A stretch of DNA of 64,000 bases from Caldilineales bacterium (GCA_037443945.1 JBBINH010000002.1:33644-97643); one strand, 5' to 3'. Positions 37,086-64,000 are shown, counted from the stretch's first letter. Numbers and translations: made by a program. The notes: a model not told the origin generated them from the letters alone.

Positions 37086-37101
37086 CCAGGAACGAAGCAC
37101 C

Positions 37102-37854: not shown

Positions 37855-37876
37855 AGGGCTTTCTGCGGGTACGGCG

Positions 37877-38629: not shown

Positions 38630-38737
38630 GCTTGGTCGTGTCGGCACCGCCGTCGGGAAGCGAGTCCCGGTTGTTTTGCGGCAGGGCTTTGGCTTCGTCC
38701 ATGACCGTGGTCTATAATCCGGTAACCGGCGCCAACG

Positions 38738-41700
38738 TTGCGTCTGTTCCTGGGTATCCGTCCGATGTCCCCCTCTCGTTCGTCGCGACGCCTGGTTTTC
38801 CTTTTCCTTGCCATCGGGTTGATCGTGGTGGTGATCGGTGGGGTTGGCCTGCTTTGGTGGCGGTGGTGGCGCCCGCCATCCCCTGTCCCCTCACCCACCG
38901 CTATCGTAACGACCACACCGACGCCGGCTATGCCATCCACACCGACGCCGACCCTAACGCCCACGCCGACGCCGGTAGCGACCGAAGTTGCTGCTCAGGT
39001 GGTGTTTGGCTCGCTGCAGCCGGGGGTGTACGAGGCCTATGATCATCTCAGTCGCGAGCCCGAACTGCGCGGGGGCACCCTGGAATTTCGTTGGAACCAG
39101 GTCGAACCTCTCCAGAACGGCTATAACTGGTCGGTCCTGGACCGGGCCTTGGCGCAACTTCCGACCGGACGCCGCGCCATCCTGCGCCTGATGGTGCGTT
39201 GCAACGAGGGCAACAACGAGGTCTGCACGCCGGATTGGGCGCTGCGCGACGAGTTCCGTCCCATCGTTGCCGCCGTGCCCCCGGCTTGTGGTCTAAGCGC
39301 AAGCACGCGAAAGCACTTGAACTATCTGGACGAGGGTGTCCAGCGCGAGCTTTTGGAGCTGATCCGCCTGTTGGGCCAACGGTACAATGCCGATCCGCGG
39401 GTGACGGCCGTGGAAGTCGGCGTGGGTTATAACGGTGAATCGTCGCCGTGGCCGTTGACCACGCTCTGCGACAAGGAGGCCCAACGCAGCGCTTACGAGG
39501 CCGCCTACGGCCCTACAGGACCGCGACAATGGGCGGATTGGCATCTCCGCCAGCTAGAGGCCTATACGGCCGCTTTCCCGGATCAGACGTTGCTCACCAT
39601 CATCACCGGGGATTACGCCGAGGCCGAGCGCTGGCGGGTGGTGCAGTGGGCCGTGGAGCACGGGGTGGGGCTGATGGTGACCTCGCTGGTGGCCGACTAT
39701 CATAGCAATCGCGGCAAAAGCGGCGATTTTTGTTTTTGGGGTGCCATCACGCGGCCGAGAGCAGCTCCCAGCGCCACCCTGGCCAATGCCTACCTCACCC
39801 AATGGGCGGCCTTGGACCACGTGTGGGAACAGGTCCCTATCGGTTTTGAGTTCAATAACGCCTCAAGCTTGATCGGCCTCGGTATCGAGGCCCACACCTG
39901 GTGGTCGGCCCTTAATGCTCTGGACAAACATGCCGATATCATCGAACCGTTTCGGGCCAACACCCGCCAAACTGCGGTTTGGCGTTTTGTCAATGCCTAC
40001 ATCGGCCAGACGGCCGGCACCACACCGGCGGTCTGGATTGTTTTCCGCAGCAGCAATCCCGCTCTGCCTGACGCCCAATGCGGCGATCTGTTCGATTACT
40101 CGTTTTTCCTCATCCATGAATTGGAGAGGCTGGGGTACGATACCCTCCTGCAGCAACAAAGCGTGCGTCGGGCCGATGCCTTGACACGACGTTTCCAGAT
40201 CGGCCCGGCTACCGATTGGCGCGGGGCTTATGCTCGTGAAACGGCCGACGGATGGCCGGTTTTCAACCTCGATGTCGATGATACGTTCAGCAGGCGCCTC
40301 GGCGGTGCGGTTGAGGTCGTCGTCACCTATTTCGATCATGCCAACGGCGGGCGTTGGGCGCTCGATTACGATAGCCTCACCGGTCCGCGTCGGGCCGGTG
40401 AAGTCGTGCTGACGGGGACCAACACCTGGCGAGAGCAGGTTTTCCGGTTGAACGATGTCCGCTTCGGCAACGGTTTGCCCAAAATGCAGGCCGATAGCCG
40501 TCGGACGGGTTTTGATCTGCGTCTGGACCGGGTGGACGGAACGAACGATAGCTTCCATCGGGTCCTGGTGCGGCCTGTGGGGACGATTCCCCTGATGAGC
40601 CCCACACCACGACCAGGCCGGACACCAACGCCTTCTGCCCCCACACCGACGCCGCAGTCGCCTTTCTACTTTCGCTTCCGACAGGGGATCGACGAGTACC
40701 GAGGCGTGCGCGATACGTTTATCGAGGCCTTTCAGCCCGACGTTGCGCGTGCCAACGAGCCGCTGTTGGGCGTGCGACCTCTCGACCGAGCTGCTGCCTT
40801 GCTGTATTTCGACCTCGGTCGTCTTCCTCCGGATGCCCTTGTCCATCGGGCCTATCTCTATCTGACGCGGCTGGCGCCGGCCGATCAAACCGTCACCCTG
40901 ACCCTCTATCGGTTGTTGCGGTCCTGGAGCGAGATGGCGACCTTCCGCCAGGCCGATACCGACAGCCCCTGGGAGCAGCCGGGTGCTCTCGGCCTGAGCG
41001 ATGCCGCTTCCAACCCCGTGGCCGGGCCGCTACCGGTTGCCCCCGGCGCCGTGGCCCGCTTCGATGTGACCGCCCTGGTCCAGAGTTGGATCGCCGATCC
41101 GATGCTCAATCAGGGCCTGATCGTGCGGGGTGACAGCAACGTTGCGCGACGATACGAGTTTGCCAGCAGCGAAAACCCTACACCGGTTTGGCGGCCGTAT
41201 CTGGAAATCCTTCTAGAAACGCCGACGCCCACGCCAACCCGCACGCCCACCCCGACGCCCACCCCGACTGCCACGCCTACGGCCACAGCCACGCGTACGC
41301 CGACCTCGACCCGCACGCCCACATCCACCCCGACCCCCACCCCCAGTCCCACCGCTACGCCGACGCCGACCCCCACACCGGCCGTACGCCTGCGCGAGGA
41401 GACGGTCTTGCGTCGCGGGCCTGGCTTCAATTTCGATGGACTCGCCACGGCAGCTGCCGACACCGTCCTTCCGCTGCTGGGACGCAGCGCCGACGGCGAT
41501 TGGCTGGCCGTCTGTTGCGTAGGAACCGATCCGGCCTGGGTACCCGGCATGAATGCCGAGGTGTTGCACATCACAACGGAGGCTTTGCCCATCATTAGCT
41601 CGCCACCGACGCCCACACCGACGCCTACGCATACACCGACCCCCACACCCTCGCCGACACCGTCACCGACGGCCACCGCAACGGCGACGCCCACGCCCAC

Positions 41701-43714
41701 GCCGACAGCCACCCCTACGCCCACGCCCACACCCACCGCCACGATAACCCCCACGCCGACGGCTGTGGTACCGGCCTGTCTGCCGTTTCGCCTGTTCGTG
41801 CTCGATATCGGCACCCAACCCAAAGGCGTGGCCGTGGGTAGCCTGGCCGATGGTACCGTCGTGACCGGCATCGGTCTGTACGAAAGCGCTGCTTTGGCTC
41901 TGGTCGTCGGCGATGAGGTCCGCATGATACCCACCGACGGTCGGGGCGCCAACGGTGTGGCGTTTGCCAACGGGCGGTTTTACATGGTCCATCGCGATAG
42001 CCGCAGCGTCAGCATCATCGACCCGGTGGCAGGCCGACAGGTGGGCCGTCTTCCGACGGGTCGGGAACCGTGGGGCGCGGCCGCCACTGCCGACAGGCTC
42101 TATGTGGCCGATTTTGCCGACGACACGGTGAGCGTCTTTGACCTGAATGACGAACAGCTCGTGGTCAGGGTGCCGGTCGCTCCGCTACCGGCCTTTGTGG
42201 CGGCAGCAGCCGATCGGGCGTTCGTGGCCCATCTCGGCGGTCAGATCAGTGTCATCGGTCCGGAGGGCGAGGTGCTTGCCGTTTTCGGACCCCTTATCGG
42301 CGGCGATGCGTTCGGTCTGGCCTACGACGCCGTCCACGATCGGCTGTGGGCGGGAAGCCGTCAGGCGCGCAGCCTGTTGGCCCTCGACGCCAGAACGGGC
42401 GTTGTTCAGGCCCGCTATCTTCTCCCGGCCGCACCGTATGCCGTGGCCTATAATCCGGCGACCGATCAGGTGTTGGCCGTGGATGCCGTTCACAATCGGC
42501 TGATGATCGTCCAGGCAGCCGACGGCGAGCTGCTAGGCCTCTTGCCGCTCAGCACCCAGGGTAGCGATCACGGCGGCCAGGGGCTGGCCGTATCCGCCAA
42601 CCGGATTTTCGTCCCCGCTTTTGCAGCAGGAGCGCTGGACGGTTTCGACGGTGGACCGTGTGTCACACCGACGCCAACGCCGACATCCACTCCTACCCCC
42701 ACGCGCACGCCGACCCCCACACGCACCCCGCGCGTGCGCACGCCGACCCCCACACGCACATCGACTCCGACACCGACCATCACGCCTACGGTTACACCGA
42801 CGGCCACACCCACGCCGACATCGACGCCAACCGTCACAGCGACGCCGACGGCCACGTTTACGCCGAGCCCCACACCCACGCCGACGCCGGCCACGCTTAT
42901 CGCCAAGATTCAAATCGTCTGGCCTCACGGCGGTGCTGCCGTGACCGAGGCCGAGCGGGCGAACATCACCGTCCATCTCTACGAAGACGAGGCTCTGAAC
43001 CCGGTGGTGTGTGACTTCGCCGCCACGGTGCGGTTATGGGCGGCGCGCAACAATGAACCGGCACGTCCCGTTGCCGTCGGTCAGCCTCGTCTGACCGAGC
43101 AGGACGGTCGGCGCTTTACCGTCTGGGATTTCAACGACATCGATGTCGCTGCAGCCCGCGATCCCCGCACTAAACTTCACTTCTTCGTGACCGTGGATGG
43201 CTTCGAGACGCGACACAACGTCTGGACCCATGGCGCCGATGCTCGTACCCTGGCACCTGTCCAGGATATCCCCACCGCCGTGTTGACGACGCTGCCCTCT
43301 GCCCTTGACGCACGCATCGAGATCGTCTGGCCTCACGGTGGCCGAGCGGTAAGCGAAGCTCGACTGGCCAATATCACCGTCTATCTCTTCCGCCGGGATA
43401 CCCTGGAAGCCCTGGGGCCTTCGGTGCGGCCGTTGCCGACGGTCCGTCTGCACAGGGCGCACAACAACGAGCCGGACGGCGGCCGCGCGGCGGCGCCGAT
43501 CGGTATCCCCCGGACCATCACGGCCCAGGGTCGGACCTGGCTGGTCTGGGATTTCAACGATGTGGATGTGGCTGCGGCCAACGATCCGCAGAATCGTATC
43601 TATTTCTGGGTGGATACGGATGAAGTGCCGACGGCGACGAACATCTGGACCCATGGCGTGCTCGGCCTCACGCGGGCGCCGATACAGGATGTGCCGGCCC
43701 GCAGTTGTCGGTGA
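38738..43714 (+). CDS. giant secreted multidomain protein (1658 aa): GH42-like TIM barrel + beta-sandwich + DNRLRE-like domain + TP linkers + YVTN-type beta-propeller + two tandem C-terminal ~135-aa repeats
   Basis: Signal anchor ([23 protein letters not shown]). '[24 protein letters not shown]' is the barrel signature. It is a paralogue of the 33247..35721 N-terminal region (shared ...YDS(L/T)TGPR... block). '[22 protein letters not shown]' is the DNRLRE-like module. About 7 YVTN-like ~40-aa repeats are present (e.g. [28 protein letters not shown]). The C-terminal duplicated unit is 'I(E/Q)IVWPHGG...ANITV(H/Y)L...WDFND(I/V)DVAAA.DP...(F/Y)F(F/W)V..D...T..N(V/I)WTHG'. The real start may be ATG 38765 (MSPSRSS...). 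Confidence 0.8.
38911..38985 (+). repeat. Thr/Pro-linker coding low-complexity repeat
   Basis: Encodes [25 protein letters not shown]. Confidence 0.7.
41218..41384 (+). repeat. Thr/Pro-linker coding low-complexity repeat (ACGCCSACSCCC)n
   Basis: Encodes [54 protein letters not shown]. Confidence 0.85.
41601..41762 (+). repeat. Thr/Pro-linker coding low-complexity repeat
   Basis: Encodes [53 protein letters not shown]. Confidence 0.85.
42663..42897 (+). repeat. Thr/Pro-linker coding low-complexity repeat (longest, ~235 nt)
   Basis: Encodes [77 protein letters not shown]. Confidence 0.85.
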
Positions 43715-43720
43715 ACGGCG

Positions 43721-44908
43721 ATGAGAAGCCAATCCTCCCCAAGCGGGACTGCCGTTTCATCCCTGCCGGCCCGGGCCTCGTGGTGGCGAGCCGAAGGGCT
43801 TTATCTCGCCGGGGTGTCGGTGGCGGCGGCCCTGTTCGTTTTTCTGTACGGTCGCATCGATTACACGGTCGAACCGTATGCCTCGGCCGATCTGTATCAC
43901 TACCGGCAGATAGCCCAGATGGCACCGAGTCTGCCTGTCGGGGTGCAACGCCCCTTTGCTTTTCGTCTCCTGGGGCCCTATTTGGCCGGCCTCTTGCCGT
44001 GGCCCGATGTCACGGCCTTCTATTGGCTCACCGTAGCGACGGCGTTGGTGTTGGCCGTGGCGACCTATGGGTTCTTACGCAGCCATGCCATTCGCCCGGG
44101 AATAGCCGCCCTGACCACGTTCTTTTTTCTGAGCAATCGCTATCTGTTCGGTTTCAACATCTGGGACTATTTTCAGATCAACGATTTGCTGATCCTGCTT
44201 TGTCTCGTGGGGCTGTTTTGGGCCCTGGAACGGCAACGCTACGGCGTGTTTGCCGTTGTGCTGGCCATAGCCGTGTTGGTTCGGGAGACGGCGTTGTTGC
44301 CGATCCCCGTCGCCTTGGTCTATCTGTGGGAACAGGGCCGTCTGCGGACCGATGTCGTTCGTCTACTGGTGGCCTGTTTGCCGGGATTGGCCTTGTTCGG
44401 GCTGGTGCGCACCATCATCGAGCCGGTCGGCGGTCTGGGTCTGGTGGCGGCGGGATTGCGCTACGCGCCCAAGCTGGCCCAACTGGAACCCCTTTTTCGC
44501 TTGGTGATCAATCCTTTCATCCCCTTCGTTTCGTTGCCGTTGCTTTTCTGGCGCAGTAGCCTGGCCTTTTTCCGCCGACGGCGATATCTGCTCGTGTATC
44601 TGGTCCTTGTTTTCATCAGCACCCTTTTCGGCAGCAACAACGAACGACTGATGGCCCCGGCCTTCCTCGTGTTCTATCTGCTTATGGCCGTGCTCATCCA
44701 GCACCACCTGGCCGAGCGTCTGTGGCCGACGGCGCTATTGCCGGTAGGTGCCGCGTTGACCAGCCTCAGCCACGAGTGGGCGCGCTTTCCCCTACCCGAT
44801 CGCCGCCTCACCATCGGGCTGTCTCTTGGCGCCTTGCTTGTCATCACTCTGGTCGTCTTGCCGACGGCCGTGCATCAGGGTTTCGGAGGGCGAGATGGAG
44901 ACGATTGA
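43721..44908 (+). CDS. polytopic integral membrane protein (about 10-11 TM), possible GT-C-like/DUF2029-type membrane glycosyltransferase
   Basis: Highly hydrophobic, with an aromatic-rich periplasmic-loop pattern. It starts 7 nt after the giant gene and overlaps the downstream gene by 14 nt. I found no soluble catalytic-domain motifs. Confidence 0.6.
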   Translation: MRSQSSPSGTAVSSLPARASWWRAEGLYLAGVSVAAALFVFLYGRIDYTVEPYASADLYHYRQIAQMAPSLPVGVQRPFAFRLLGPYLAGLLPWPDVTAFYWLTVATALVLAVATYGFLRSHAIRPGIAALTTFFFLSNRYLFGFNIWDYFQINDLLILLCLVGLFWALERQRYGVFAVVLAIAVLVRETALLPIPVALVYLWEQGRLRTDVVRLLVACLPGLALFGLVRTIIEPVGGLGLVAAGLRYAPKLAQLEPLFRLVINPFIPFVSLPLLFWRSSLAFFRRRRYLLVYLVLVFISTLFGSNNERLMAPAFLVFYLLMAVLIQHHLAERLWPTALLPVGAALTSLSHEWARFPLPDRRLTIGLSLGALLVITLVVLPTAVHQGFGGRDGDD

Positions 44909-53022: not shown

Positions 53023-53802
53023 TTATTGAACCTCCGGCTCGATGCCCAATGCGCGTAATTGGGCGGCCAGACGCTCGGCGCGTCTTCGTTCCTCCTCGGC
53101 CTGGCGTTGGGCCTCCTCGGCGCGGCGGCGTTCGGCCTGGGCGAGTTCGGCGGCGGTGGGGATGAGGCGGCCTTCGGGGTCGCACCAGCGCAGCCAGCGG
53201 GAGCGGACGCCTTCGAAGGAGCCTTCCCAGAGGCGGAGGCCGAGGCCTACCTGGGGGAGCATGGTGTCCTCCCGTTGGCGGTAGCCTGCGGTGGTCCATT
53301 CGAGGACGACGAGTTCCTGTTCCTGGAGGAGGCGCTGGGGGTCGTGGACGACGTAGTAGGGGATGTGCATTTGCTCGTAGCGCTGCTGTTTGTCGCTGCG
53401 TTCGCCGCCGCGGCGGTTGGAGACGATTTCGATGACGACGTCGGGGACCTTGCCGAACTCCCAGACGAAGTAGCTGCGGTGCTCCTTGGGCCAGAGGTCG
53501 TCCCAGAGGTGGACGTCGAGGCTGAGGAAGACATCGGGGACGAGGGGTGGTTGGTTGATGGCGTTGAAGAGGCCGACGTTGGCGAAGACGGCGAAGGGGC
53601 GACCGGGTTGCCAGGAGCTGTAGAGGGGTTCGGTGAGGAGGCGCTGTTGTTTTTCCGAGAAGATGTTGTCCACCGGCGTGTCATCCTCGGTGATGAGGTG
53701 GGTGATATCGGGTCGCGGGGGAGGTTCCCAGAGGGGTTCGGGGAGGGGCGAGACGGTAGCCTCTTCGGGTTGGGGTGGTCGTTCCAGAACCGTTACATCC
53801 AT
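53023..53802 (-). CDS. Uma2-family endonuclease (DUF820/PF05685)
   Basis: 'PDVVIEIVSNRRGGERSDKQQRYEQMHIPYYVVHDPQ' is the PD-(D/E)xK core typical of Uma2. A Glu/Arg/Ala-rich C-terminal tail is present. The start is set at MDVTVLERP. Confidence 0.8.
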   Translation of the reverse strand: MDVTVLERPPQPEEATVSPLPEPLWEPPPRPDITHLITEDDTPVDNIFSEKQQRLLTEPLYSSWQPGRPFAVFANVGLFNAINQPPLVPDVFLSLDVHLWDDLWPKEHRSYFVWEFGKVPDVVIEIVSNRRGGERSDKQQRYEQMHIPYYVVHDPQRLLQEQELVVLEWTTAGYRQREDTMLPQVGLGLRLWEGSFEGVRSRWLRWCDPEGRLIPTAAELAQAERRRAEEAQRQAEEERRRAERLAAQLRALGIEPEVQ

Positions 53803-53994
53803 CCGTTGTTCTCCTAATAAACCGACGAATACCTGAAAATTCGGTATCATGGGTCATTATAGCCCCCTGCATGGTGGGCTGCAAACCCAACGACAAAAGC
53901 CAGGATCCAGGGGTTTGCCTGCCCATCTGCCGGGGCTTTGTTGTCACCGCTTAGCGATTTGCTCGCCAGCTCGGACTGCGGTGATAATGAGCCT

Positions 53995-54681
53995 ATGCCG
54001 TTCGTGTTACCGCTCCTCGATATTGACCTCATCCTTTTTGATTTGGATAATACCCTCTACCATCGCCACGATGGGTTGTGGGCCGAAATCGACAAACGCA
54101 TTTTGACCTACGTATGTCAGACGCTGGCTCTAGAACCCGACGAAGCCAGAGTCCTTCAGAAGCGCTATTGGCGTCAGTACGGCACCACCCTTATGGGGTT
54201 GATGTGCGAACACGGTATCCCGCCTCAACCCTATTTGGACTACGTGCACGATTTCGATGTCAGCCGTTACCTACAGCCCAACCCCGAACTGGCAGCTATC
54301 CTGGCAACTTTGCCCCAGCGTAAGGCTGTCTTTACGAATGCCACTTCAAAACATGCCCGCAACGTGCTTTCGGCATTGGGCTTGCTTTCTTTTTTCGAAA
54401 TGTTGATCGGTGTAGAAGAGGTTGGCTATATCCCCAAACCGCAGAGGGCAGCTTACGAACGGTGTTTAGCTTTGCTGAATGTCTCCGCCGATCGGTGCTT
54501 GTTCATCGAGGACAGCGCGGTAAACCTCCCTCCGGCCCGGGCCCTGGGTATGAAAACCGTGCTTATCGGTAGCGCAACAGAAGGCGAAGCGGATTTCTAC
54601 CTGGACCGGATCGAAGCGATCGGCCAACTTTTCGGCCGCGGCGTTGGGGTAAACGCCCCGGGCGATGGGCACTCCGGTTGA
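53995..54681 (+). CDS. HAD-family hydrolase (pyrimidine 5'-nucleotidase/HAD-IA-like)
   Basis: Motif I 'LILFDLDNTLY', motif II (FTNAT) and motif IV (FIEDSAVN) are present. Confidence 0.75.
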   Translation: MPFVLPLLDIDLILFDLDNTLYHRHDGLWAEIDKRILTYVCQTLALEPDEARVLQKRYWRQYGTTLMGLMCEHGIPPQPYLDYVHDFDVSRYLQPNPELAAILATLPQRKAVFTNATSKHARNVLSALGLLSFFEMLIGVEEVGYIPKPQRAAYERCLALLNVSADRCLFIEDSAVNLPPARALGMKTVLIGSATEGEADFYLDRIEAIGQLFGRGVGVNAPGDGHSG

Positions 54682-54707
54682 TCCGTTCGCTTTGAGCCGT
54701 TTGCATT

Positions 54708-56249
54708 TTGCGATTCCCGGCCATGCGCCTGTCTATCTTGTTGACCAACACCGGCTTCAATGTCGCCGGGATGATCCTGACGTCGCTCCTGGCACTGGTG
54801 CTTACGCCCTGGCTAATCCGAGGGCTGGGTGCGGAGCTGTTTGGGGTATGGGCCTTATTCGGTGTAGTCATTGCCATGGCGCAAATGCTGGATCTCGGTC
54901 TGGGCCGGGCCTTGATACGCACCATCGCTCATCATAGGGCCTTAGGGCAATGGTCGGCTATAGCCGAAGCGCTCAACAGTGTGCTCTGGCCCTTGCTGAT
55001 ATCGGCCGTCTTCCTTAGCGCCATCGTCGTGGTTTTGGCTCCTTGGTGGGTACACTTGTTGGGTGTCCCCCCCTCATACGTTGTCGCCGTAGTGCCGGCC
55101 TTTCGCCTGCTTGGCTTGAGCTTTGCACCGTTGGTCTTGACGCTCGTCTTGGCCGCCGTCGTGGACGGCTGTCAACGCATGGTGTACACGAATCTTGCGC
55201 TCATCGCCAACCGCAGCACATTTGCCGTTATAGGTGTGTTGGCCTTGACGTTGGATTGGGGCTTGACAGGAGTGGCGTTCGCAACGTTGGTCGGTGTGGT
55301 GGTACAAATGGCGTTGCTCCTAGCAGCAGTGCGGCGGGTGGCACCGGCGTTGCGTTTTTCGCCTCGCTTGCTTCGGGTGCGGCTGTTATACCGGGAGTGG
55401 CGCTTTGGACGTTTTGTGTTTCTGACGAGTTTGATCGCGCTGGGTTTTACGGCCGGAAACAAGCTCATCCTGGCGCGATGGGTAGGATTAACGGCTTTGG
55501 GTTACTACGAGTTGGCCGTGACCATCGCTACCCAGTTGTTCACCCTGGCTTTGGCCATGGCCCAGGCACTCTATCCGGCGTATGTCTCTGCTCTGGCCGA
55601 AGGCGGCATGGCCATGGTACGACAGCTCTACGGTCATGCCCTGCGTCTGGCCATGCTTGTGTTGGCGCCGCTTACTGCCGTTATCGTGGCCTTGGCGCGG
55701 CCGTTTGTGTTGGCCTGGTTGGGGCAGCCGGTAACGGCAGTCATCACCGGCCTGCACTGGCTGAGCATCGGTTGGGCATTCGTCGGTTTGGCAGCGGTGG
55801 CTTCGGTCGGTTTGCAGGCCCTGGACCGGCCGTTTTGGGCTACTGTGTTTTCCCTCTATAACTTGCTTATCAATCTGCTGTTGGCCATCATGTGGGTGCC
55901 GGTGTGGGGCTATCATGGCCTTATCGCGGCTAACATGGTGGCTATCACCAGCAGTGCTGCCCTGACCCAGCTTGTCTTCGGGCATGCGGTCGGTGTATCC
56001 CCTGCCTTCTGGCTAAGGGCCTTGTCCCCTGCGATGCTGGTATGGTTATCGACTCTGGTCGGATTATGGACCTGGTTTGGCAGTCGTTGGCAACATCCTC
56101 ATGTCCCCGGTCTGTTTCTATTGGGAGGCGCGTTCCTCCTCATTTACACAGGAGGCTTATGGCTTTTGCGCTTGTTACGACCTGAGGAAGCGGCCTGGTT
56201 GCAACGTCGCATCCGGCGACATTCCGGCTATCAGGGGGTGGCGCTATGA
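54708..56249 (+). CDS. polysaccharide biosynthesis protein / oligosaccharide flippase (Wzx/MOP superfamily)
   Basis: About 14 predicted TM helices. The N-terminal 'GFNVAGMILTSLLALVLTPWLIRGLGAELFGVW' is typical of the PST/Wzx family. Confidence 0.8.
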   Translation: MRFPAMRLSILLTNTGFNVAGMILTSLLALVLTPWLIRGLGAELFGVWALFGVVIAMAQMLDLGLGRALIRTIAHHRALGQWSAIAEALNSVLWPLLISAVFLSAIVVVLAPWWVHLLGVPPSYVVAVVPAFRLLGLSFAPLVLTLVLAAVVDGCQRMVYTNLALIANRSTFAVIGVLALTLDWGLTGVAFATLVGVVVQMALLLAAVRRVAPALRFSPRLLRVRLLYREWRFGRFVFLTSLIALGFTAGNKLILARWVGLTALGYYELAVTIATQLFTLALAMAQALYPAYVSALAEGGMAMVRQLYGHALRLAMLVLAPLTAVIVALARPFVLAWLGQPVTAVITGLHWLSIGWAFVGLAAVASVGLQALDRPFWATVFSLYNLLINLLLAIMWVPVWGYHGLIAANMVAITSSAALTQLVFGHAVGVSPAFWLRALSPAMLVWLSTLVGLWTWFGSRWQHPHVPGLFLLGGAFLLIYTGGLWLLRLLRPEEAAWLQRRIRRHSGYQGVAL

Positions 56250-57292
56250 CGCTCTGCGATGTCAGCCTGGTCATTGTTACCTGGAATGTAAGCACGGCGC
56301 TCACCCGATGTCTGGCGGCGTTGCCGGCAGCCTGGGATAGCGGTGACGAACTTCCGTTCCGGCACTGGGAACTGATTATCGTGGATAATGCCTCGACCGA
56401 TGGCACGGCCGCTGCCGTGTCGCAACAGGCGATGGCCTTGCTGGCGACGAGAACCGGTCGGCCCCCTCGCCAGGTGCGCTTGCTGGTCAATGCTCACAAT
56501 CGTCTGTACACGGCGGCGGCTAACCAGGGCCTGGATGCGGCTCAGGGGCGTTATCGCCTCGTGCTCAATCCGGATACCATCCCTACCCCCGGCAGCCTGG
56601 CGCGGTTGGTAGCGCTGGCCGAGGCCCATCCCCGCATCGGATTGGTCGGTCCGCGCATCCTAACGACCGAAGGCTGCGATGATCTGCGGACAGGACGTCA
56701 TTATCCCACCCCGTGGTCGGAATTCAGCGACTGGTTGGGATTGACGCGACGCTTTCCCGGTTCACGACTATGGGCTGCTAACCTGCGTCCTGATGTCCCC
56801 CGCACCCGCACAGGCCCGGTTCCGGTTCTTTCGGGGGCGTGCTTGCTTTTCTCGGCTTCGCTCCCTGCGCATTTGCAGCGTTTTGACCCTGATTATCCCA
56901 TGTACGGCGAGGATCTCGACCTTTGTCGGCGTGTCCAGGCGGCCGGTTATGAGACCTGGCTGGCAGCCGAAGCCGTTATCCAACATATCGGCGGCCTGAG
57001 CAGTCGGCAGGCACGGGTCGACGCGGCCTTGCTGGCTGCGGATGGGGTCAATCGCTACTTTCGACGCTGGCATGGCCTCCAGGCAGCACAACGCCATCGT
57101 CTGGGGATGGCCGTTGTAGCCGCTGTTAAGTGGTCGGTCTTCAGCCTGTTGAGTTGGTTCGGCCTGGAGAAACAACCCGACCTGCAGCGTCGTCTTCATG
57201 CCGGATTATGGCGTTGGGCCTGGAGTGGCCGTCTGGACAGAACGGGGACAACGGCTGCCGAAGTTCACACCGTGGTTTTGTCATGCTCATGA
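56246..57292 (+). CDS. glycosyltransferase family 2
   Basis: 'VSLVIVTWN', 'IIVDNASTDGT' and the DxD region are present. It has an ATGA overlap with the flippase gene. Confidence 0.85.
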   Translation: MTLCDVSLVIVTWNVSTALTRCLAALPAAWDSGDELPFRHWELIIVDNASTDGTAAAVSQQAMALLATRTGRPPRQVRLLVNAHNRLYTAAANQGLDAAQGRYRLVLNPDTIPTPGSLARLVALAEAHPRIGLVGPRILTTEGCDDLRTGRHYPTPWSEFSDWLGLTRRFPGSRLWAANLRPDVPRTRTGPVPVLSGACLLFSASLPAHLQRFDPDYPMYGEDLDLCRRVQAAGYETWLAAEAVIQHIGGLSSRQARVDAALLAADGVNRYFRRWHGLQAAQRHRLGMAVVAAVKWSVFSLLSWFGLEKQPDLQRRLHAGLWRWAWSGRLDRTGTTAAEVHTVVLSCS

Positions 57293-58488
57293 CTGTGCCG
57301 ACCTTGCGCGTGCTCCATTGCCGTCAGGGTGACCGTGTCTGGGGACCGGAACGCCAGATCCTGCAGTTGGCCAAACATCTGCCCGAACTGGGGATTGAGG
57401 TGGAAATCGTGCTGTTACGTCGTTGGGGCCTGGACACCGAACCCCATCCGTTGGTCAGGCAAGCGCGTGCCTTTGGTTGTGTTGCACATGAGATTTCGGC
57501 GCGTCCCCAGGATACGCTGCAAGTCCTTCGTTTTCTACGCCATCGTCTGACTTACTGCGACCTGTTGCATACGCATGAGTTCAAAAGCGATTTGCTGGGT
57601 TGGCCGGTAGCCCGTCATTTAGGACGACCTTGGATTGCTACCGACCATCACTTGGCCGTGGACAAAAGCCATTTGTTGCGGTTATTCGCCGCTCTCGATC
57701 GGCGTGCCTTACGACGGGCCGATGCGGTTATTGTGCCTTCTTATAGTCAGGCGCTGCGCCTGCAAGAGGTGGTACCACCGGAGCGGGTGCATATTATCTA
57801 CCATGGTATCGATGCTACCGCCTTTGCTCAAAGTGCCGGTAATGCGCGGCCGTTGGTGCGCAAACGCTATGGGGTCGCCGATAACGAACCGGTTATTGCG
57901 GTTTTCGGACGGCTCGAGCCGGTCAAAGGCCATGCCGACCTGTTAGAAGCGGCACGGCTCATGCTGCAGATGCGCTCCGATCTTCATTTCTGGATTGTGG
58001 GTGAGGGTAGCCTGGATAAGGCCCTGCAGCGTCGAGCCCACGCGCTGGGCATTGCCGGAGCGGTACGATTTCTGGGTTATCAGCAGGATGTAGCCCCGCT
58101 CATGGCCGCCAGCGATCTGATTGTGTTACCATCCCGGCATGAATCCTTCGGTATCGTCCTCATCGAGGCCATGTCATTGGGAAAGCCAATTCTCGCCAGT
58201 GCTGTCGGCGGTGTTTCCGAGGTCATCCCGGACGGCATTGGGGGCATTTTGGTACCACCCGGTCAGCCGGCCGAGTTGAGCCGCCGTGCTCTTCGGTTGC
58301 TGGCCGATCCGGCCTGGGCCGCTGCTTTGGGTAGGGCGGGACAGCACCGTGTGCAAACCCTCTTTACTATCAAGCCTATGGTCGAGCGTGTGGCCGCTTT
58401 GTATCGTCAGACGGTGGCGCAAAACCGGGCCATGAGCACGGTCATAGCGCGCAGGTCATCCCATTTCTCTCCTTTATCCCGTTCTTAG
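57283..58488 (+). CDS. glycosyltransferase family 4
   Basis: A GT-B fold is present, with 'PSRHESFGIVLIEAMSLGKPILAS' (the EX7E region). The start overlaps the GT2 stop (ATG at 57283 or 57289). Confidence 0.85.
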   Translation: MLMTVPTLRVLHCRQGDRVWGPERQILQLAKHLPELGIEVEIVLLRRWGLDTEPHPLVRQARAFGCVAHEISARPQDTLQVLRFLRHRLTYCDLLHTHEFKSDLLGWPVARHLGRPWIATDHHLAVDKSHLLRLFAALDRRALRRADAVIVPSYSQALRLQEVVPPERVHIIYHGIDATAFAQSAGNARPLVRKRYGVADNEPVIAVFGRLEPVKGHADLLEAARLMLQMRSDLHFWIVGEGSLDKALQRRAHALGIAGAVRFLGYQQDVAPLMAASDLIVLPSRHESFGIVLIEAMSLGKPILASAVGGVSEVIPDGIGGILVPPGQPAELSRRALRLLADPAWAAALGRAGQHRVQTLFTIKPMVERVAALYRQTVAQNRAMSTVIARRSSHFSPLSRS

Positions 58489-58489
58489 G

Positions 58490-59536
58490 ATGGTGTCGGC
58501 CGCCATGCCCCCGGATACGTTCTCTCCACACCTGCGGGTGAGTGTAATCATCCCCGCCTACAATGCTGCGCGTGACTTGCCACGCTGTCTGGCCGCCCTG
58601 GAACAGCAAACCATCCCCCGTGATGAATACGAAATCATCGTGGTCGATGACGGGAGCACCGACAATACCGCTGCCGTGGCCGAGGCAGCCGGGGTACGCG
58701 TGGTGCGCCTGAACCATAGCGGGCCGGCGGCCGCCCGCAATGCCGGTGTGAGCGTGGCGCGTGCGCCCATTGTCGTCTTTACCGACGCCGACTGTGAGCC
58801 CTTAGGCGATTTTCTCGAACATTTATTGGAGGGCTTCGCCGCTCCCATTGTCAGTGGGGTACGCGGGGTTTACCGCACGCAACAGCGTGAACTGATAGCC
58901 CGTTTTGTCCAGCTCGAATACGAAGAGCGCTATCACCGGATTGCCCATATCGAGGCCACCCAAGGCACGATCAACGCCATGGATACTTCCTATTGCGCCT
59001 ATCGTCGCCAGGTCTTCTTGGAGGCGGGTGGATTCGATACGCGTTTTCGCGGAGCCGCGGGCGAGGATCATGAGTTTTCCTACCGTTTGGCAGCGGCCGG
59101 CCATGTCTTCCGCTTGAACCGGCAAGCGGCGGTTTATCATCGCCATGTGACCACCTGGCGCGGATACGCCCGGCGCAAGTTCCGTATCGGGTATTGGAAA
59201 GCGTTTTTGACCCGGCAACATCCCGGCTATGCCGTGGCCGATGCCCACACCACGCAAAGTCTCAAACTGCAGATCGGCCTTGTGGCCCTAATGGGAGCCA
59301 CCCTGCTCGTGGGGCCTTTCTGGCCGCCGGTCGGCTGGATAGCCCTGGCGCTGGCGACGCTCTTTGTATTCAGTACCATCCCTTTTCTGGTTCTCGTCGC
59401 CCGTCGCGACCCTGTCGTGTTGGTCGTCGTCTGGCCGTTATTGCTGGTGCGCGCCCTGGCCTCAGGAGCCGGTTTTGCCTGGGGACTTTGGCAGACCCGC
59501 CGCCTTCCGGCCGTAGCCCAGGTTCCCCTGACCTGA
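58490..59536 (+). CDS. glycosyltransferase family 2 with C-terminal membrane helices
   Basis: 'VSVIIPAYNAARDL', 'IIVVDDGSTDNT' and 'DADC' are present. Two C-terminal TM helices are present. Confidence 0.85.
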   Translation: MVSAAMPPDTFSPHLRVSVIIPAYNAARDLPRCLAALEQQTIPRDEYEIIVVDDGSTDNTAAVAEAAGVRVVRLNHSGPAAARNAGVSVARAPIVVFTDADCEPLGDFLEHLLEGFAAPIVSGVRGVYRTQQRELIARFVQLEYEERYHRIAHIEATQGTINAMDTSYCAYRRQVFLEAGGFDTRFRGAAGEDHEFSYRLAAAGHVFRLNRQAAVYHRHVTTWRGYARRKFRIGYWKAFLTRQHPGYAVADAHTTQSLKLQIGLVALMGATLLVGPFWPPVGWIALALATLFVFSTIPFLVLVARRDPVVLVVVWPLLLVRALASGAGFAWGLWQTRRLPAVAQVPLT

Positions 59537-59912
59537 TTTGGCCGTCTTATGTGGCTGTATTAGGATTAGAGCTGGCAATCATCGGCGACCGGGGCAGCCT
59601 TTACCGAGTACGTCCCCTTTCTATGCGGATGGGCTGCTTTCGGCCAACGCGAACGCCTCCGAGTCTGTTGAAGATGTAGCGACCGTATAAGACGGGCCTT
59701 TGTCGGCCTGCCTTCGGGTGAGTTTTTGAGATCGCCTCGATCTGTCTTGGGTATCGTGGTTATGCCCTCGCAAGCGGCAGAGACCTCGTTGTAGCGATTC
59801 GCTCCGGGTTTCTGCCTCTCATAACGTCCCTTGCTGTGAGTGTTGAGAGGCTCACAGGGGCGGAGCTTGGGCAAAAAAGGTAACATTATCCGTTACATTT
59901 TTGGCAACAATT

Positions 59913-60803
59913 ATGCAAAAAACTCTAATTCGTCCTGTCTCGTCGCCTGGCATTGATAATACAACCGTTGCGATCGGAAAAATCGTCATTGAACCGCCAC
60001 GTGGTCTACCGCACATCAATTGGCGAGAATTGCTGGCCTATCGGGACTTGTTCTATTTCATGGTGCGTCGGGATATTCAGGTCCTCTATCGGCAAACGGT
60101 GTTGGGATTGGCCTGGGCGTTTTTGCGACCCTTTATCAGTATGATTCTCTTTACATTCATTTTCGGTCGTGTGGCCAGGTTAAACAGCGATGGCGTTCCC
60201 TATCCCCTTTTCAGCTACACAGCCCTTGTGCCTTGGACTTACTTTGCTACGGTCGTCCAGACGGCGACAACCAGCTTGATCACCAACAGCAACATGCTGA
60301 CCAAGGTCTACTTTCCTCGCCTGGTCTTCCCGTTGACACCGGTATTCTCGAAATTGCCCGATTTTCTGCTTGCCCTCGGCTTGTTGCCTGTTTTCATGGT
60401 TGTTTATCGGGTATGGCCGACCCCTTATGTACTCGTCCTACCCGCTCTGGTCGTCATCATGGCAGCATCGGCGGCCGGATTGGGAATGTGGCTGGCTGCG
60501 CTGGCCGTGCAGTATCGCGATGTCAATCATGCTTCCCAATTTCTTATCCAGATCCTGATGTTTGCGGCACCGGTCGTGTGGCCGGTCTCACTCATGACGG
60601 CCCACTTCGGCGAAACGGCGCGGTTGCTTTACGGCCTCTATCCCATGGTGGCCGTGATCGAGGGCTTTCGCGCGGCTCTCCTGGGTACGGTGCCCATGCC
60701 CTGGGATTTGATCGGAATCGGCGCCGTCTCGGCAAGTTTACTCCTCGTTTCCGGCGCCTACTATTTTCGTCACATGGAACGGCGCTTCGCCGATGTGGCC
60801 TGA
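59913..60803 (+). CDS. wzm: ABC-2 type polysaccharide/O-antigen export permease (Wzm/TagG/KpsM family)
   Basis: Six TM helices, and the N-terminal 'ELLAYRDLFYFMVRRDIQVLYRQTVLGLAWAFLRP' ABC-2 signature, are present. The track ORF begins at an alternative TTG (59901). I place the start at ATG 59913. Confidence 0.85.
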   Translation: MQKTLIRPVSSPGIDNTTVAIGKIVIEPPRGLPHINWRELLAYRDLFYFMVRRDIQVLYRQTVLGLAWAFLRPFISMILFTFIFGRVARLNSDGVPYPLFSYTALVPWTYFATVVQTATTSLITNSNMLTKVYFPRLVFPLTPVFSKLPDFLLALGLLPVFMVVYRVWPTPYVLVLPALVVIMAASAAGLGMWLAALAVQYRDVNHASQFLIQILMFAAPVVWPVSLMTAHFGETARLLYGLYPMVAVIEGFRAALLGTVPMPWDLIGIGAVSASLLLVSGAYYFRHMERRFADVA

Positions 60804-60821
60804 AACCGATCCGAACAGCTC

Positions 60822-62108
60822 ATGAGCCGTATAGCCATCGAAGTCGAAAACCTGAGCAAGCGTTATCGCATCGGGTTGACCCAAGAAGAGGAACAGGACA
60901 CCCTGGGTGGTGCTCTGCTTTCCTGGCTCAAGGCGCCGATCACGAACTTTCGGCGCCTACAACGGCTGAGTCGATTCGATGACGGCGAGGAAGCCGATGT
61001 CATTTGGGCGCTGCGGGATGTCAGTTTTCAGGTCGCCGAAGGCGAGGCCGTGGGGATTATCGGTCGTAACGGCGCCGGCAAGAGTACCTTGCTCAAAATT
61101 CTGACCCGTATTACCCCACCTACGACCGGTCGCGCCGTCCTAGACGGCCGGGTCGCGAGCCTGCTCGAAGTCGGCACCGGTTTTCATCCCGAACTGACCG
61201 GACGCGAGAATGTCTATCTGAACGGCACCGTTCTCGGCATGACCGCGCGTGAGATCGAGCGCAAATTCGACGAAATCGTCGAATTCTCCGGCGTGGCCAA
61301 ATTTATCGATACGCCGGTCAAACGTTATTCGAGCGGGATGCGGGTGCGTCTGGCCTTTGCTGTGGCTGCCCATCTCGACCCCGAGATCCTGCTTATCGAC
61401 GAGGTGTTGGCCGTGGGCGATGCCCGGTTTCAGCGCAAATGCCTGGGCAAGATGAACGAGATCGCCAATGAGGGCCGCACGGTCCTCTTCGTCAGCCATA
61501 ATCTACCTTCCATCGAGGCCTTGTGTGCACGGGCCTTCGTTTTGGACGAAGGACGACTTGTTTTCAGCGGTGATGCTCGCGAAGCGGTCAGCTTTTATCT
61601 CAACCGCCAAGTCTTCGGTCTGACCAGCGGTGTGGATTTGCGCCATCACCCTCATCGTCTTGCGGGCGATCGTGAGCCTATTTTCACCTCCTTGCGGCTT
61701 TTGAATGCCGATGGTTTGGAGACAAGCTCCTTCGCCATCGGCGAACCTATCACCTTTGAGCTACGGTTGGATTTGGGCGAAGCGGAGCTGGATACACCCC
61801 TGATTACCATTGCCATCGAAAAGCGCGGGATTCCCATTTGCGCTCTGACAACTCGCTTCATGGTGGCACAGCGTTTTACGCTGACCGGTCAGGCTATGGC
61901 CCGTTGTACCTGGCGTCCGGGCTGGTTGACACCGGGCGAATACACCGTCAGCCGTGTAACCCTCAAAGCCGGAGCTTCGGCCGAACGCCTCGACCATATC
62001 GAAGAGGTCCTGGCTTTTGAAATTGTAGAACGGGATGTCTACGGCACCGGCAAAATTGCCCGCAAGGATACCCTGCTCGTTCCCAACGGCACATGGCAAT
62101 TCTTCTGA
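60822..62108 (+). CDS. wzt: polysaccharide export ABC transporter ATP-binding protein with C-terminal carbohydrate-binding domain (Wzt-like)
   Basis: Walker A (GRNGAGKST), the signature YSSGMRVRLAFA and Walker B (LLIDEVLAVGD) are present. There is an extra ~170-aa C-terminal beta-domain, as in Wzt. Confidence 0.9.
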   Translation: MSRIAIEVENLSKRYRIGLTQEEEQDTLGGALLSWLKAPITNFRRLQRLSRFDDGEEADVIWALRDVSFQVAEGEAVGIIGRNGAGKSTLLKILTRITPPTTGRAVLDGRVASLLEVGTGFHPELTGRENVYLNGTVLGMTAREIERKFDEIVEFSGVAKFIDTPVKRYSSGMRVRLAFAVAAHLDPEILLIDEVLAVGDARFQRKCLGKMNEIANEGRTVLFVSHNLPSIEALCARAFVLDEGRLVFSGDAREAVSFYLNRQVFGLTSGVDLRHHPHRLAGDREPIFTSLRLLNADGLETSSFAIGEPITFELRLDLGEAELDTPLITIAIEKRGIPICALTTRFMVAQRFTLTGQAMARCTWRPGWLTPGEYTVSRVTLKAGASAERLDHIEEVLAFEIVERDVYGTGKIARKDTLLVPNGTWQFF

Positions 62109-64000
62109 GCCGCTTCTCGGTGCTCGTCGCCCTTCTCTTCGTGGTGATCGGTCTGACGTCCGCCATGAAAACGACCCGGGCTGCCTCGTCGGCGCCTCTC
62201 CTGAGCGGCCCTTTTCTCATTCTGGATACGGGCCTGATCGACACCGCCCGCTCGCGCAACCTGCGTTGGGCTGCTCACGCGCCGGATGTGGTCGAACGCG
62301 TGCTCGGTCCCGACCGACCCTGGGAGGCTATGGGCTATCACTACTGGAGCCAGGTGATGGAGACAGAGGAGGGCTATCGGCTCTACTATCGGCGCCTGCC
62401 GGTAGACGAGACCGACACGGCCGGCCAATATTGCCTGGCCGTATCGACGGATGGCATCCATTGGGAGAAGCCGGCGCTGGGCCTTAGCTTTTACCAGGGG
62501 CTGGATACGAACTGCACCGAACATGGTTTTCAGTTCGTTTTCGTCGATCCGAATGCCGATCCGGCGCAACGTTACAAAAAATTCGGCTTCCTGGACGATG
62601 AATCCTTCGGCCTGGTCAGCGTCAGCCCGGATGGCCTGCGCTTCTACCCCTATCCTCGGCGCCTACTGCCCTTTTTTGCCGATTCGCAGAATGTTGTCCT
62701 TTGGGATGACGAGCGCGCACGGTATCGGTTCTATCTGCGCGGCCGCAATGAGGATGGTCGCACGGTCGTCTATGCCGAGACAAGCACTCTCGAACAGCCG
62801 CTTCCCTATGAGTCTGTTGTTCGCCAACCGCACACCGGTTCTCGCAGCTATCCCCATATCCGGCAGGAATTACCCGCTGTCCTGGCAGCCGACGAGGCCG
62901 ATTGGGCGGGTTGGCAGGATCCTCGTCCGGGGATGGTTGACATCTACCATAGTGCAGCGTTCAAATACCCCTGGGCGCAGGGGGTCTATCTGGCTTTTCC
63001 CAACATTTACTATCACTACTCGTCACGGACCACCCCACAGGCGCTCAACACCAACGACGGCGAGTTCGAGGTGCAACTGGCCGTTAGCCGGGATGGTCAG
63101 ACCTGGACTCGCTATCGGACGCCCTATGTCGCCCGTGGTGTCCTTGATGGCACCCGCATGTACATAATAAGCATGGGACAAGGGTTACTGCGGCGGGGGA
63201 ATCGCCTCTATCAGTATGTCATCGCTCTCCCTCGCACCCATGGCTTCGGAGCCGAATTCGACGGCGAATGGCGCTGGATTTTTCGGGATCAGGAGACCCG
63301 CATGCGTTGGATGACCGGCGAACGCGGCGGCATCTATCGGACCGAGATCGGTCTCCATCGCTTTGTCTCGTTACAGGCCGGAACGGACGAGAGCATTGTG
63401 ACAACGCTGCCCTTCCGCTATCTCGGTAACCGGCTCTTGCTTAATCTGCGCACGGCCGGCAACGGCTTCGTGTGTGTGGGGCTATTAGATGAAAGAGGAC
63501 GCAGTTTGCCCGGCCGTAGCCTGGCCGATTGCGATCCGCTACAGGGGGACGGTTACGAGCTGACGGCAACCTGGCATGGTGAGGCCGACATCGGCGCCTG
63601 GAGCGGGATGCCCGTGCGCTTGCAATTTCGCCTGCAACAGGCGGACCTCTTTGCCTTCGAATTCGGCGGTGATGCCTACAGTACACAACCGTTGGTCGTG
63701 CAATGGCGCGAGGCGTTCACCCAGGATTACGGCCGGCTGACCGCAGTGCGCGGTCGCGATGCCTGGCAGGTGCAGAACGGCTATCTCGTCGGTCCTTTTG
63801 ACCGTAACGGCATGGTCAATGAACGGACACGACGGCTCGATCGCCGCGTCACAGAGCGGGATGCTTTTGCCCTTCAATTCGACTTCCGTCTGGAGGCCGG
63901 CCAACGCGAGCTTGATGCGGCTGCCCTCATCGGCTTGATGGGCGATGGCGGTCTGGCCCGCAATCCCTTGCTGGCCTTTTGGCTCGACAACGGTGGACGG
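62093..64000 (+). CDS. secreted BNR-repeat beta-propeller protein (sialidase/glycoside-hydrolase-like); 3' end beyond window
   Basis: An open frame-2 ORF runs from ATG 62093 (overlapping the wzt stop) to the window end (>635 aa). Signal peptide MAILLSRFSVLVALLFVVIGLTSA. BNR-like motifs are present (STDGIHW, SRDGQTW, and SPDGLRF is BNR-related). It is not in the ORF track because it has no stop in the window. Confidence 0.6.
   Translation, partial: MAILLSRFSVLVALLFVVIGLTSAMKTTRAASSAPLLSGPFLILDTGLIDTARSRNLRWAAHAPDVVERVLGPDRPWEAMGYHYWSQVMETEEGYRLYYRRLPVDETDTAGQYCLAVSTDGIHWEKPALGLSFYQGLDTNCTEHGFQFVFVDPNADPAQRYKKFGFLDDESFGLVSVSPDGLRFYPYPRRLLPFFADSQNVVLWDDERARYRFYLRGRNEDGRTVVYAETSTLEQPLPYESVVRQPHTGSRSYPHIRQELPAVLAADEADWAGWQDPRPGMVDIYHSAAFKYPWAQGVYLAFPNIYYHYSSRTTPQALNTNDGEFEVQLAVSRDGQTWTRYRTPYVARGVLDGTRMYIISMGQGLLRRGNRLYQYVIALPRTHGFGAEFDGEWRWIFRDQETRMRWMTGERGGIYRTEIGLHRFVSLQAGTDESIVTTLPFRYLGNRLLLNLRTAGNGFVCVGLLDERGRSLPGRSLADCDPLQGDGYELTATWHGEADIGAWSGMPVRLQFRLQQADLFAFEFGGDAYSTQPLVVQWREAFTQDYGRLTAVRGRDAWQVQNGYLVGPFDRNGMVNERTRRLDRRVTERDAFALQFDFRLEAGQRELDAAALIGLMGDGGLARNPLLAFWLDNGGR

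Follow-up and report, generated by a model that had tools for sequence, protein, structure and literature searches.

What role does a putatively secreted, glycosidase-like propeller play in an operon for a glycan exporter, and might it act on the very polymer that the operon exports? The question is raised by a 64,000-nucleotide (nt) stretch of Caldilineales (Chloroflexota) DNA, hereafter the window, in which open reading frame (ORF) listing and family scans revealed glycan genes, all on the + strand, filling positions 54708-64000. A reading made earlier from the sequence alone (the sequence-only reading) had proposed a polysaccharide biosynthesis and export locus with the gene order flippase-GT2-GT4-GT2-wzm-wzt (GT, glycosyltransferase), followed by a secreted BNR beta-propeller; ORF and Pfam analyses bore out the gene order, and the BNR label was lost. 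We find a fairly ordinary cell-surface polysaccharide locus, a variant of the known design in which glycan assembly dependent on an ABC (ATP-binding cassette) transporter is combined with an accessory flippase, with the propeller protein as its one unusual part. The best explanation is that a cell-envelope glycan locus of ~20 kb, in two transcription units, has its first half here, and we give about an even chance to the whole reading, in which the propeller protein processes the locus's own exported polymer.

Throughout, L-numbers denote the contigs or loci compared and P-numbers the homologous proteins. Sequence past the window end was read from L001, a near-identical contig (99.4% across 8,863 nt, gap-free) reached through the propeller homologue P0001 (99% identical, 793 aa); an exact-sequence lookup using the window Wzt returned no match.

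A propeller gene overlaps the end of wzt

The exporter and propeller genes comprise the following features:

59913-60803, + strand: wzm, ABC-2 permease of the glycan exporter (ABC2_membrane, 56.8 bits)
60822-62108, + strand: wzt, ABC ATPase with a C-terminal carbohydrate-binding domain (ABC_tran, 82 bits; Wzt_C, 37.4 bits)
61662-62036, + strand: Wzt_C carbohydrate-binding domain (PF14524), Wzt residues 281-405, from Pfam profile and fold
62093-64000, + strand: propeller protein, first 636 of 793 codons, frame open to the window end; plausibly secreted and surface-tethered
62093-62164, + strand: putative signal peptide or membrane anchor, residues 1-24, MAILLSRFSVLVALLFVVIGLTSA, from hydrophobicity and model
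62195-63352, + strand: five-bladed beta-propeller core, residues ~35-420, with SxDGxx[WF] motifs
63353-63673, + strand: beta-sandwich domain after the propeller, residues ~421-527, all-beta, predicted local distance difference test (pLDDT) 94-99
63725-64000, + strand: start of a clade-specific orphan C-terminal domain, residues ~545-745, continuing past the window

The ATG of the propeller gene at 62093 precedes the wzt stop (62106-62108), giving an overlap of 16 nt, in agreement with the sequence-only reading. That reading could follow the frame only to the window end; it runs on uninterrupted, because near-identical L001 carries it through 793 aa.

Wzm has five transmembrane (TM)-like segments and the same start ATG in L001 to L003; its top NCBIfam match, galactan Wzm/RfbD, is sub-threshold, as are the top matches of Wzt (TagH and galactan Wzt), whose ABC domain is of the Wzt/TagH clade. 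The carbohydrate-binding domain (CBD) previously claimed for the Wzt C-terminus is present: Wzt_C exceeds its gathering score of 30.4 in the whole protein and reaches 40 bits in the C-terminal 167 aa alone. Against the PDB, Wzt matched the full-length A. aeolicus structures 8dku and 7k2t at E ~1e-65 and Wzt nucleotide-binding domains (NBDs) at E 1e-61, and its AlphaFold2 (AF2) model aligned over ~420 columns with full-length A. aeolicus Wzt (NBD and CBD, E ~1e-34), compared with ~1e-24 for NBD-only structures. The C-terminal region is modelled as all-beta (pLDDT 82-96). Searched alone by pairwise phmmer against the PDB, the C-terminal domain had no match, so its assignment as a CBD rests on profile and fold. 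PF14524 is carried by thousands of full-length Wzt homologues, including those of Anaerolineae and other Chloroflexota metagenome-assembled genomes, and profiles and models agree in presenting this protein as an ordinary CBD-type Wzt. CBD-type Wzt transporters need a cap at the chain end, which can be methyl, (methyl)phosphate or Kdo (PMC9445017); the sequence-only reading had named methyl and phosphate as examples of such a cap.

The propeller belongs to a large family resembling five-bladed glycosidases

The N-terminus of the propeller protein has a 15-residue Kyte-Doolittle maximum of 2.80 and is modelled as a helix (residues 2-24) followed by a disordered stretch. A hydrophobic N-terminal stretch is kept in all five orthologous lineages (P0002 to P0005 included) despite diverging sequence; 'TSA' precedes M25, and an uncleaved anchor is as likely as a cleaved signal peptide. 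The protein is plausibly secreted and glycan-active, as was first suggested.

In the AF2 model, built with 60 homologues, pLDDT exceeds 90 over residues 35-525. The propeller has five blades, as does the GH130 (GH, glycoside hydrolase) fold, and Foldseek identified it as GH130/GH43-like, not as a six-bladed sialidase; matches included GH32- and GH43-type enzymes that join a propeller to a sandwich. The beta-sandwich here is conserved family-wide, with N451, G458 and W494 invariant. Further invariant residues are D45, D152, D205, D283, R223, R333, H383, Y292 and Y299. Three copies of SxDGxx[WF] occur in the core, at 62444-62464, 62624-62644 and 63086-63106 (STDGIHW, SRDGQTW and SPDGLRF); the sequence-only reading had listed the first two. 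This short motif is the part that aligns to GH130 blades: a PDB profile search reached the GH130 structure 3taw at E 5.7e-6, over blades 1-2 only, and Pfam Glyco_hydro_130 gave no match to the protein. Because identities to all solved structures are only 10-15%, the likeness is one of fold, not of family membership.

None of the motif copies is a canonical Asp-box, and a search of the protein for SxDxGxTW, canonical or relaxed, found no match. Pfam BNR, BNR_2 and Sialidase did not match even at E<=10, nor did any such family in NCBIfam; across 60 aligned family members, no BNR, sialidase or other curated family covered the core, and the only recognized domain was an accessory Laminin_G_3, in 24 of the 60. 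A Pfam match to BT_1020/GH143 was rejected as a link to ulosonic-acid hydrolases, as it scored 16.6-18.8 bits against a cut-off of 27 and covered the blade motif only.

On profile and model evidence, the protein is a member of a very large unannotated family that resembles five-bladed glycosidases. When 1.84 billion cluster representatives were searched with a profile, 4,203 clusters matched at E<=1e-30 and 13,327 at E<=1e-10; the family has no curated domain model, and an N-terminal hydrophobic segment was present in 73 of 120 members. One protein, P0241 (5,844 aa), contains 53 separate stretches matching the family profile, best over profile positions 81-192 (the blade 1-2 region), and to judge by these matches looks like a giant protein of repeated blade-like units.

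Beyond the window, the protein ends in the ~200-aa orphan domain, a Pro/Thr linker and an 'LYLPLLQR' tail. The orphan domain has no Pfam match even in a permissive scan, and its sole homologue outside P0001-P0005 is one partial Caldilineales protein; an agglutinin match (E 0.05) was dismissed as weak. Domain, linker and 'LYLPLL(R)' tail are found only in the wzt-linked clade of the family (P0001-P0005).

A tail of the form [LVI]YLPLL[RQ]R, often after a Pro/Thr-rich linker, also ends other proteins of this genome, at least three large, apparently secreted ORFs in all: at 35689-35718 (an 850-aa ORF, 33169-35721, + strand), at ~19770-19805 (+ strand) and at the end of the propeller protein (L001 9305-9334). 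The propeller orthologues have LYLPVLLRGRP, LYLPLLRR, IYLPMMLRP and SYLPLWLAAD, and a GDSL esterase downstream in L001 ends in the related WIWLPIVRH. The tail is too short for a TM helix, in contrast to sortase or exosortase signals, and may serve Caldilineales as an anchoring or sorting motif of their own for surface proteins.

The operon is conserved within Caldilineales and extends beyond the window

Downstream of the propeller gene, L001 carries the following genes, in order:

102-aa membrane protein
DUF4915/TIGR03032 protein
280-aa sulfotransferase-like protein
WbbJ-like hexapeptide O-acetyltransferase
NeuB-family synthase
KdsC/Kdn-9-P-type HAD phosphatase
SDR
PseF-like CMP-sugar synthetase
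two GDSL esterases
dxs

A 13-gene core — flippase, GT2, GT4, GT2, Wzm, Wzt with Wzt_C, propeller, sulfotransferase-like protein, Hexapep, NeuB, HAD, SDR and CMP-synthetase — is found in four lineages: that of the window and L001, and L054, L004 and L055, with propeller identities to the window of 88%, 75% and 58%, respectively. The L054 contig begins just upstream of wzm, and the flippase-GT unit is not visible there. A fifth lineage, L005 (60% propeller identity), shows the downstream half of the locus. The 16-nt overlap between wzt and the propeller gene is kept in three lineages, and the 102-aa and DUF4915 genes are present or absent by lineage; a literature search on DUF4915/TIGR03032 returned no papers. 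The second transcription unit is best explained as a leader followed by wzm, wzt and the propeller gene, and then by the sulfotransferase-like, O-acetyltransferase, NeuB, phosphatase, SDR, CMP-synthetase and GDSL esterase genes.

In parts of the DUF4915, sulfotransferase-like and O-acetyltransferase genes (L001 9600-12000, or ~0.7-3.1 kb beyond the window end), GC content falls to 33-39%, compared with ~60% around them. This composition suggests that a modification module entered the locus by horizontal transfer.

The spacer upstream of wzm had been described as a 375-nt gap; it is there, and measures 376 nt from the GT2 stop to the wzm ATG (~860 nt in L004). It contains one feature:

59764-59875, + strand: conserved structured leader, a candidate cis-regulatory RNA, from its conserved core and stable fold

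A 26-nt core of the leader (59785-59810) occurs once in the window and is identical in L001, L002, L004 and L007, and its central 20 nt recur in L054. The core is identical even in a genome with proteins only 75-90% identical, where the remaining spacer is unalignable. Folding of 59760-59912 gave -58 kcal/mol against -43.9 ± 3.7 for shuffles (z = -3.83), and a three-lineage consensus contains 37 pairs, 2 of them compensatory, with two hairpins within an outer helix. The leader had no Rfam match, a scan of 53800-64000 with Rfam found no known RNA, and promoter and terminator scans gave results no better than shuffles. Conserved and well-folding as it is, the leader points to a separate, regulated 5′ end for the wzm operon.

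The upstream unit supplies the glycosyltransferases

Upstream of the spacer lie the following genes:

53023-53850, - strand: Uma2-family endonuclease gene, directly upstream of the HAD gene
53938-54681, + strand: HAD-family hydrolase gene, stopping 26 nt before the flippase start
54708-56249, + strand: MOP/PST-superfamily lipid-linked glycan flippase, Wzx-type at family level (Polysacc_synt, Polysacc_synt_3)
56246-57292, + strand: GT2 glycosyltransferase (Glycos_transf_2, 73.5 bits), start overlapping the flippase stop (ATGA)
57289-58488, + strand: GT4 glycosyltransferase (Glycos_transf_1, 141.9 bits; Glyco_transf_4, 84.3 bits), start overlapping the GT2 stop
58490-59536, + strand: membrane-anchored GT2 with three C-terminal TM-like segments (Glycos_transf_2, 116.2 bits)

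The flippase scores 64.8 bits with Polysacc_synt (PF01943; cut-off 28.2) and 53.4 bits with Polysacc_synt_3, also above cut-off, and its eleven TM-like segments give it the polytopic topology of that family; against the curated Wzx model, NCBIfam WZX_like, it reaches 38 bits, with a cut-off of 300. No polytopic candidate for a Wzy partner was found within the locus, the nearest being an 8-TM ORF without a family match (43721-44908) in a separate cluster. Two of the overlapping-stop junctions described by the sequence-only reading are confirmed, namely the ATGA overlaps between flippase and GT2 (56246-56249, GCTATGACG) and between GT2 and GT4 (57289-57292, CTCATGACT), and GT4 is called from the same ATG in L001 and L002; the second GT2 does not overlap GT4, a single nt separating its start from the GT4 stop. 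The TM-like segments of the second GT2 begin at residues 257, 277 and 297. This first unit is best explained as (HAD)-MOP flippase-GT2-GT4-GT2, translationally coupled.

Family scans, extended to L001, identified no recognizable glycosyltransferase in the wzm operon, and those of the first unit are the only ones in the locus. Because the wzm operon has none of its own, the three upstream enzymes most likely build the ABC-exported polymer; a side-chain route is a possible role for the flippase and the membrane-anchored GT2.

The span first assigned, 54708-64000, contains the glycan genes but is too short: the locus extends ~9 kb past the window end (L001) and probably begins at the HAD gene, which is adjacent, on the same strand and matched by homologues at the equivalent position in two other lineages, L004 (84% identity; PF00702/PF13419) and L055 (67%). 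The Uma2 and HAD pair precedes the flippase again in L004, a Caldilineales genome of 75% identity. Synteny thus reaches past the glycan genes, and conserved gene order therefore says less about function.

Cap candidates lie downstream, not with the distant methyltransferase

In the cassette beyond the window, L001 scores 272 bits for NeuB, 113 bits for Hydrolase_3 with KdsC and 78 bits for CTP_transf_3, and the set of NeuB, phosphatase and CMP-synthetase is also found in L004, L005 and L055. A NeuB-family synthase with a dedicated phosphatase and a CMP-synthetase indicates a route through a phosphorylated sugar; Kdn synthesis in B. thetaiotaomicron proceeds in this way, with a dedicated phosphatase (PMC6200933). 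By analogy with the Kdo cap, we infer that this cassette would be a better source of a cap than the methyltransferase put forward, as a speculative link, by the sequence-only reading, and the sulfotransferase-like gene appears to be a second candidate, also ahead of the methyltransferase:

37829-38629: SAM methyltransferase, overlapping the end of a Bac_transf phosphoglycosyl transferase (36967-37854)

We rejected this enzyme as the capping enzyme. It lies ~21 kb from wzm in an operon context of its own, co-transcribed with its own phosphoglycosyl transferase, with nothing linking it to the locus; an opposite-strand polA, a DEAD-box helicase and the Uma2 gene stand between them. The separate glycan-related cluster at 36967-44908 consists of the phosphoglycosyl transferase, the methyltransferase, a 1,658-aa protein (38738-43714) with only a weak GH42-like match, and the 8-TM ORF, which could be a Wzy- or GT-C-like protein.

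Outside this clade the family keeps catabolic company

Scanning named genomes with a 12-sequence alignment located the propeller family in Planctomycetota, Verrucomicrobiota, Lentisphaerota, Kiritimatiellota and Hydrogenedentota, and further in Armatimonadota, Omnitrophota, Latescibacterota, Acidobacteriota and Gemmatimonadota. Among 47 family loci, synteny with the window is confined to the one from Caldilineales. Elsewhere, paralogues of the family lie in tandem arrays (81 ORFs in 44 loci), with seven paralogues on the Armatimonadota contig L026. Neighbouring genes there encode SSF Na+/solute symporters (17 loci), enolase-type dehydratases (9), aldehyde dehydrogenases (7), sulfatases (6) and HpcH aldolases (6), and Gfo/Idh/MocA oxidoreductases also adjoin family genes (L008-L053). 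We take this set to resemble the deoxy- or anhydro-sugar catabolic pathways of sulfated-polysaccharide degraders, and the neighbours and arrays together are the hallmark of secreted glycosidases with a catabolic role. The 43-44% homologues P0006 and P0007 lack the additions of the wzt-linked clade and lie in unrelated contexts.

A model for the locus and its alternatives

In the model we prefer, gene identities, junctions, folds, synteny and the distribution of the family are established by the analysis, and the identity of the cap, the role of the flippase and the choice of the locus's own polymer as the propeller's substrate are what we infer. The three glycosyltransferases would build a polyprenol-linked polymer in the cytoplasm, and its non-reducing end would gain a terminal modification, for which a CMP-activated Kdn-type nonulosonic acid or a sulfate are the best candidates. 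The Wzt C-terminal domain would read this cap, and Wzm/Wzt would export the chain, while the flippase might deliver a lipid-linked sugar or oligosaccharide destined for a side chain or another chain, on the pattern of Gram-positive rhamnose loci. Once the 793-aa protein is secreted, its Pro/Thr linker and 'LYLPLL' tail would keep it at the surface, and its five-bladed, glycosidase-like propeller would trim, remodel or release the exported polymer. A bolder form of this model, to which we attach little probability, is that one propeller clade was domesticated as a surface maturation enzyme translationally coupled to the cap-reading Wzt, which after export would remove the nonulosonic-acid or sulfated cap or sever the chain from its carrier. 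If true, the enzyme would be without known precedent in reversing or completing the Wzt 'export ticket' outside the cell, and would found a new glycoside hydrolase family.

Several observations weigh against the processing model. Within 10 kb of the family genes, the 46 non-Caldilineales loci contain no Wzm, NeuB, CMP-synthetase, flippase or glycosyltransferases, and the family lies there in catabolic clusters. The profile alignments of the propeller to PDB entries span only the recurring blade motif, with no catalytic residues mapped. NeuB and the CMP-synthetase fall below equivalog cut-offs, and no equivalog model singled out Neu5Ac, Pse, Leg or Kdn as the sugar; all NCBIfam equivalog scores in the cassette are sub-cut-off (score/cut-off: NeuB 292/400, PseI 240/340, PseF 141/206, Kdn-9-P phosphatase 83/180, KdsC 113/208). 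The sulfotransferase-like protein has weak matches to four sulfotransferase Pfam families and to heparan-sulfate O-sulfotransferases (E 0.004-0.07). The locus yielded no nonulosonic-acid transferase, GT-C, Wzy, LCP ligase or chain terminator. Every wzt-linked example belongs to a single order, and the synteny among them takes in the unrelated flanks Uma2 and DXS, so that conservation could reflect descent, not selection, and alone is no proof of functional coupling.

In one alternative, which we consider unlikely, the propeller is a nutritional exo-glycosidase acting on environmental polysaccharide, sits in the wzt operon of this clade by historical accident and has no part in the locus's own polymer. 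The paralogue arrays and catabolic neighbours of the 46 other loci, never with exporter genes, are what it predicts, as are the unrelated contexts of P0006 and P0007, and it accommodates a Caldilineales synteny that also spans unrelated flanking genes. Yet the propeller start codon lies inside the last wzt codons in three lineages; the gene stays between wzt and the sulfotransferase/nonulosonic-acid cassette down to 58% identity while small neighbours are gained and lost; the orphan domain, linker and tail were acquired only by this clade; and no transporter or catabolic genes lie near the propeller gene in L001. Somewhat less probable again is a non-hydrolytic propeller, whether an extracytoplasmic polysaccharide de-N-acetylase like the F. 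plautii GalNAc deacetylase or a GH130-like, glycosyl-phosphate-dependent transferase that replaces the missing GT-C and takes as donor a polyprenyl-phosphate sugar delivered by the flippase. No residue-level correspondence was established, the invariant D45, D152, D205 and D283 suit a glycosidase equally well, and the wider family, secreted and catabolic, is ill-suited to phosphorylases or lipid-linked donors; a literature search on the fold of the F. plautii deacetylase yielded nothing useful.

A different doubt concerns the locus itself. The flippase-GT and wzm-wzt operons might be independent glycan pathways that are merely adjacent, a possibility we rate as rather improbable, though ahead of the other rivals. 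The variable-length spacer with its own conserved structured leader speaks for separate pathways, as does the lack of any Wzy, GT-C or ligase joining the units; but the wzm operon has no recognizable glycosyltransferase and the only ones available lie in the flippase operon, the units are adjacent in 4 of the 4 lineages with upstream DNA visible, and combined layouts are well documented (PMC9574508). A six-bladed hydrolase of the BNR/sialidase family, by comparison, is scarcely credible: the motif copies cited for it are real, but five blades were modelled and the sialidase-family profiles were silent.

If the propeller does act on the exported polymer, as our preferred model has it, it would offer a handle on the fate of capped, ABC-exported glycans once they have crossed the membrane, a step that is poorly understood outside lipopolysaccharide (LPS) systems and more so in the little-studied Chloroflexota envelope. 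An activity for the propeller family would in turn annotate thousands of genes, including those in the sugar-utilization clusters of Planctomycetota, Verrucomicrobiota, Hydrogenedentota and related phyla. Should all of this fail, what is left is simply one more variable gene cluster for surface polysaccharide.

Comparison with known systems

The sequence-only reading had singled out the presence of two export routes in one locus. This layout is known: a flippase stands beside a Wzm/Wzt-type exporter in the rhamnose cell-wall polysaccharide loci of streptococci, lactococci and enterococci, with GacDE plus GacK and RgpCD plus WpsG as named examples, and there the ABC transporter exports the backbone, and decoration with side chains outside the membrane falls to a GT-A, a small 3-TM helper, a Wzx flippase and a GT-C (PMC9574508). 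Like S. pyogenes gac, L. lactis cwps and E. faecalis epa, our locus combines an ABC exporter and a flippase, here a MOP flippase with a GT2 bearing C-terminal TM segments; the ~100-aa membrane protein recalls the small helper, but occurs in some lineages only and is as dispensable as DUF4915. Unlike the rhamnose loci, it revealed no GT-C, rml genes or LCP ligase, and its Wzt bears a CBD.

The adjacent NeuB family, KdsC/Kdn-9-P-type HAD phosphatase and CTP_transf_3 genes parallel the CMP-Kdn pathway of B. thetaiotaomicron. Unlike that pathway, the cassette here is sub-equivalog, adds an SDR, an O-acetyltransferase and a sulfotransferase-like gene, and was seen in near-identical and orthologous contigs.

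Compared with GH130, GH43, GH62, GH137, GH32 and GH117, the propeller shows 10-15% identity and no Pfam match to any; its core has ~390 residues with long insertions, against ~300 in those glycosidases, and the protein is predicted to be secreted. Exopolysaccharide loci that encode their own secreted glycan-active enzyme, presumed to process the product, are exemplified by PslG, BcsZ and PelA, but these belong to known CAZy families, have other folds and serve synthase- or Wzy-dependent systems, not a CBD-Wzt operon.

The closest relatives of the exporter itself are A. aeolicus WzmWzt and the E. coli O9a and Klebsiella O12 systems, which likewise pair an ABC-2 permease with an ATPase carrying a Wzt_C jelly-roll domain; Wzt here is ~31-32% identical to A. 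aeolicus Wzt, with a full-length fold match. In a Chloroflexota host, a description of the product as 'O antigen on LPS' is doubtful. The present locus contains neither a WbdD-type kinase/methyltransferase nor a WbbB-type terminator. In contrast to the O-antigen ABC exporters, the cap candidates here are a nonulosonic acid or a sulfate, and the operon incorporates the gene of a putatively secreted propeller.

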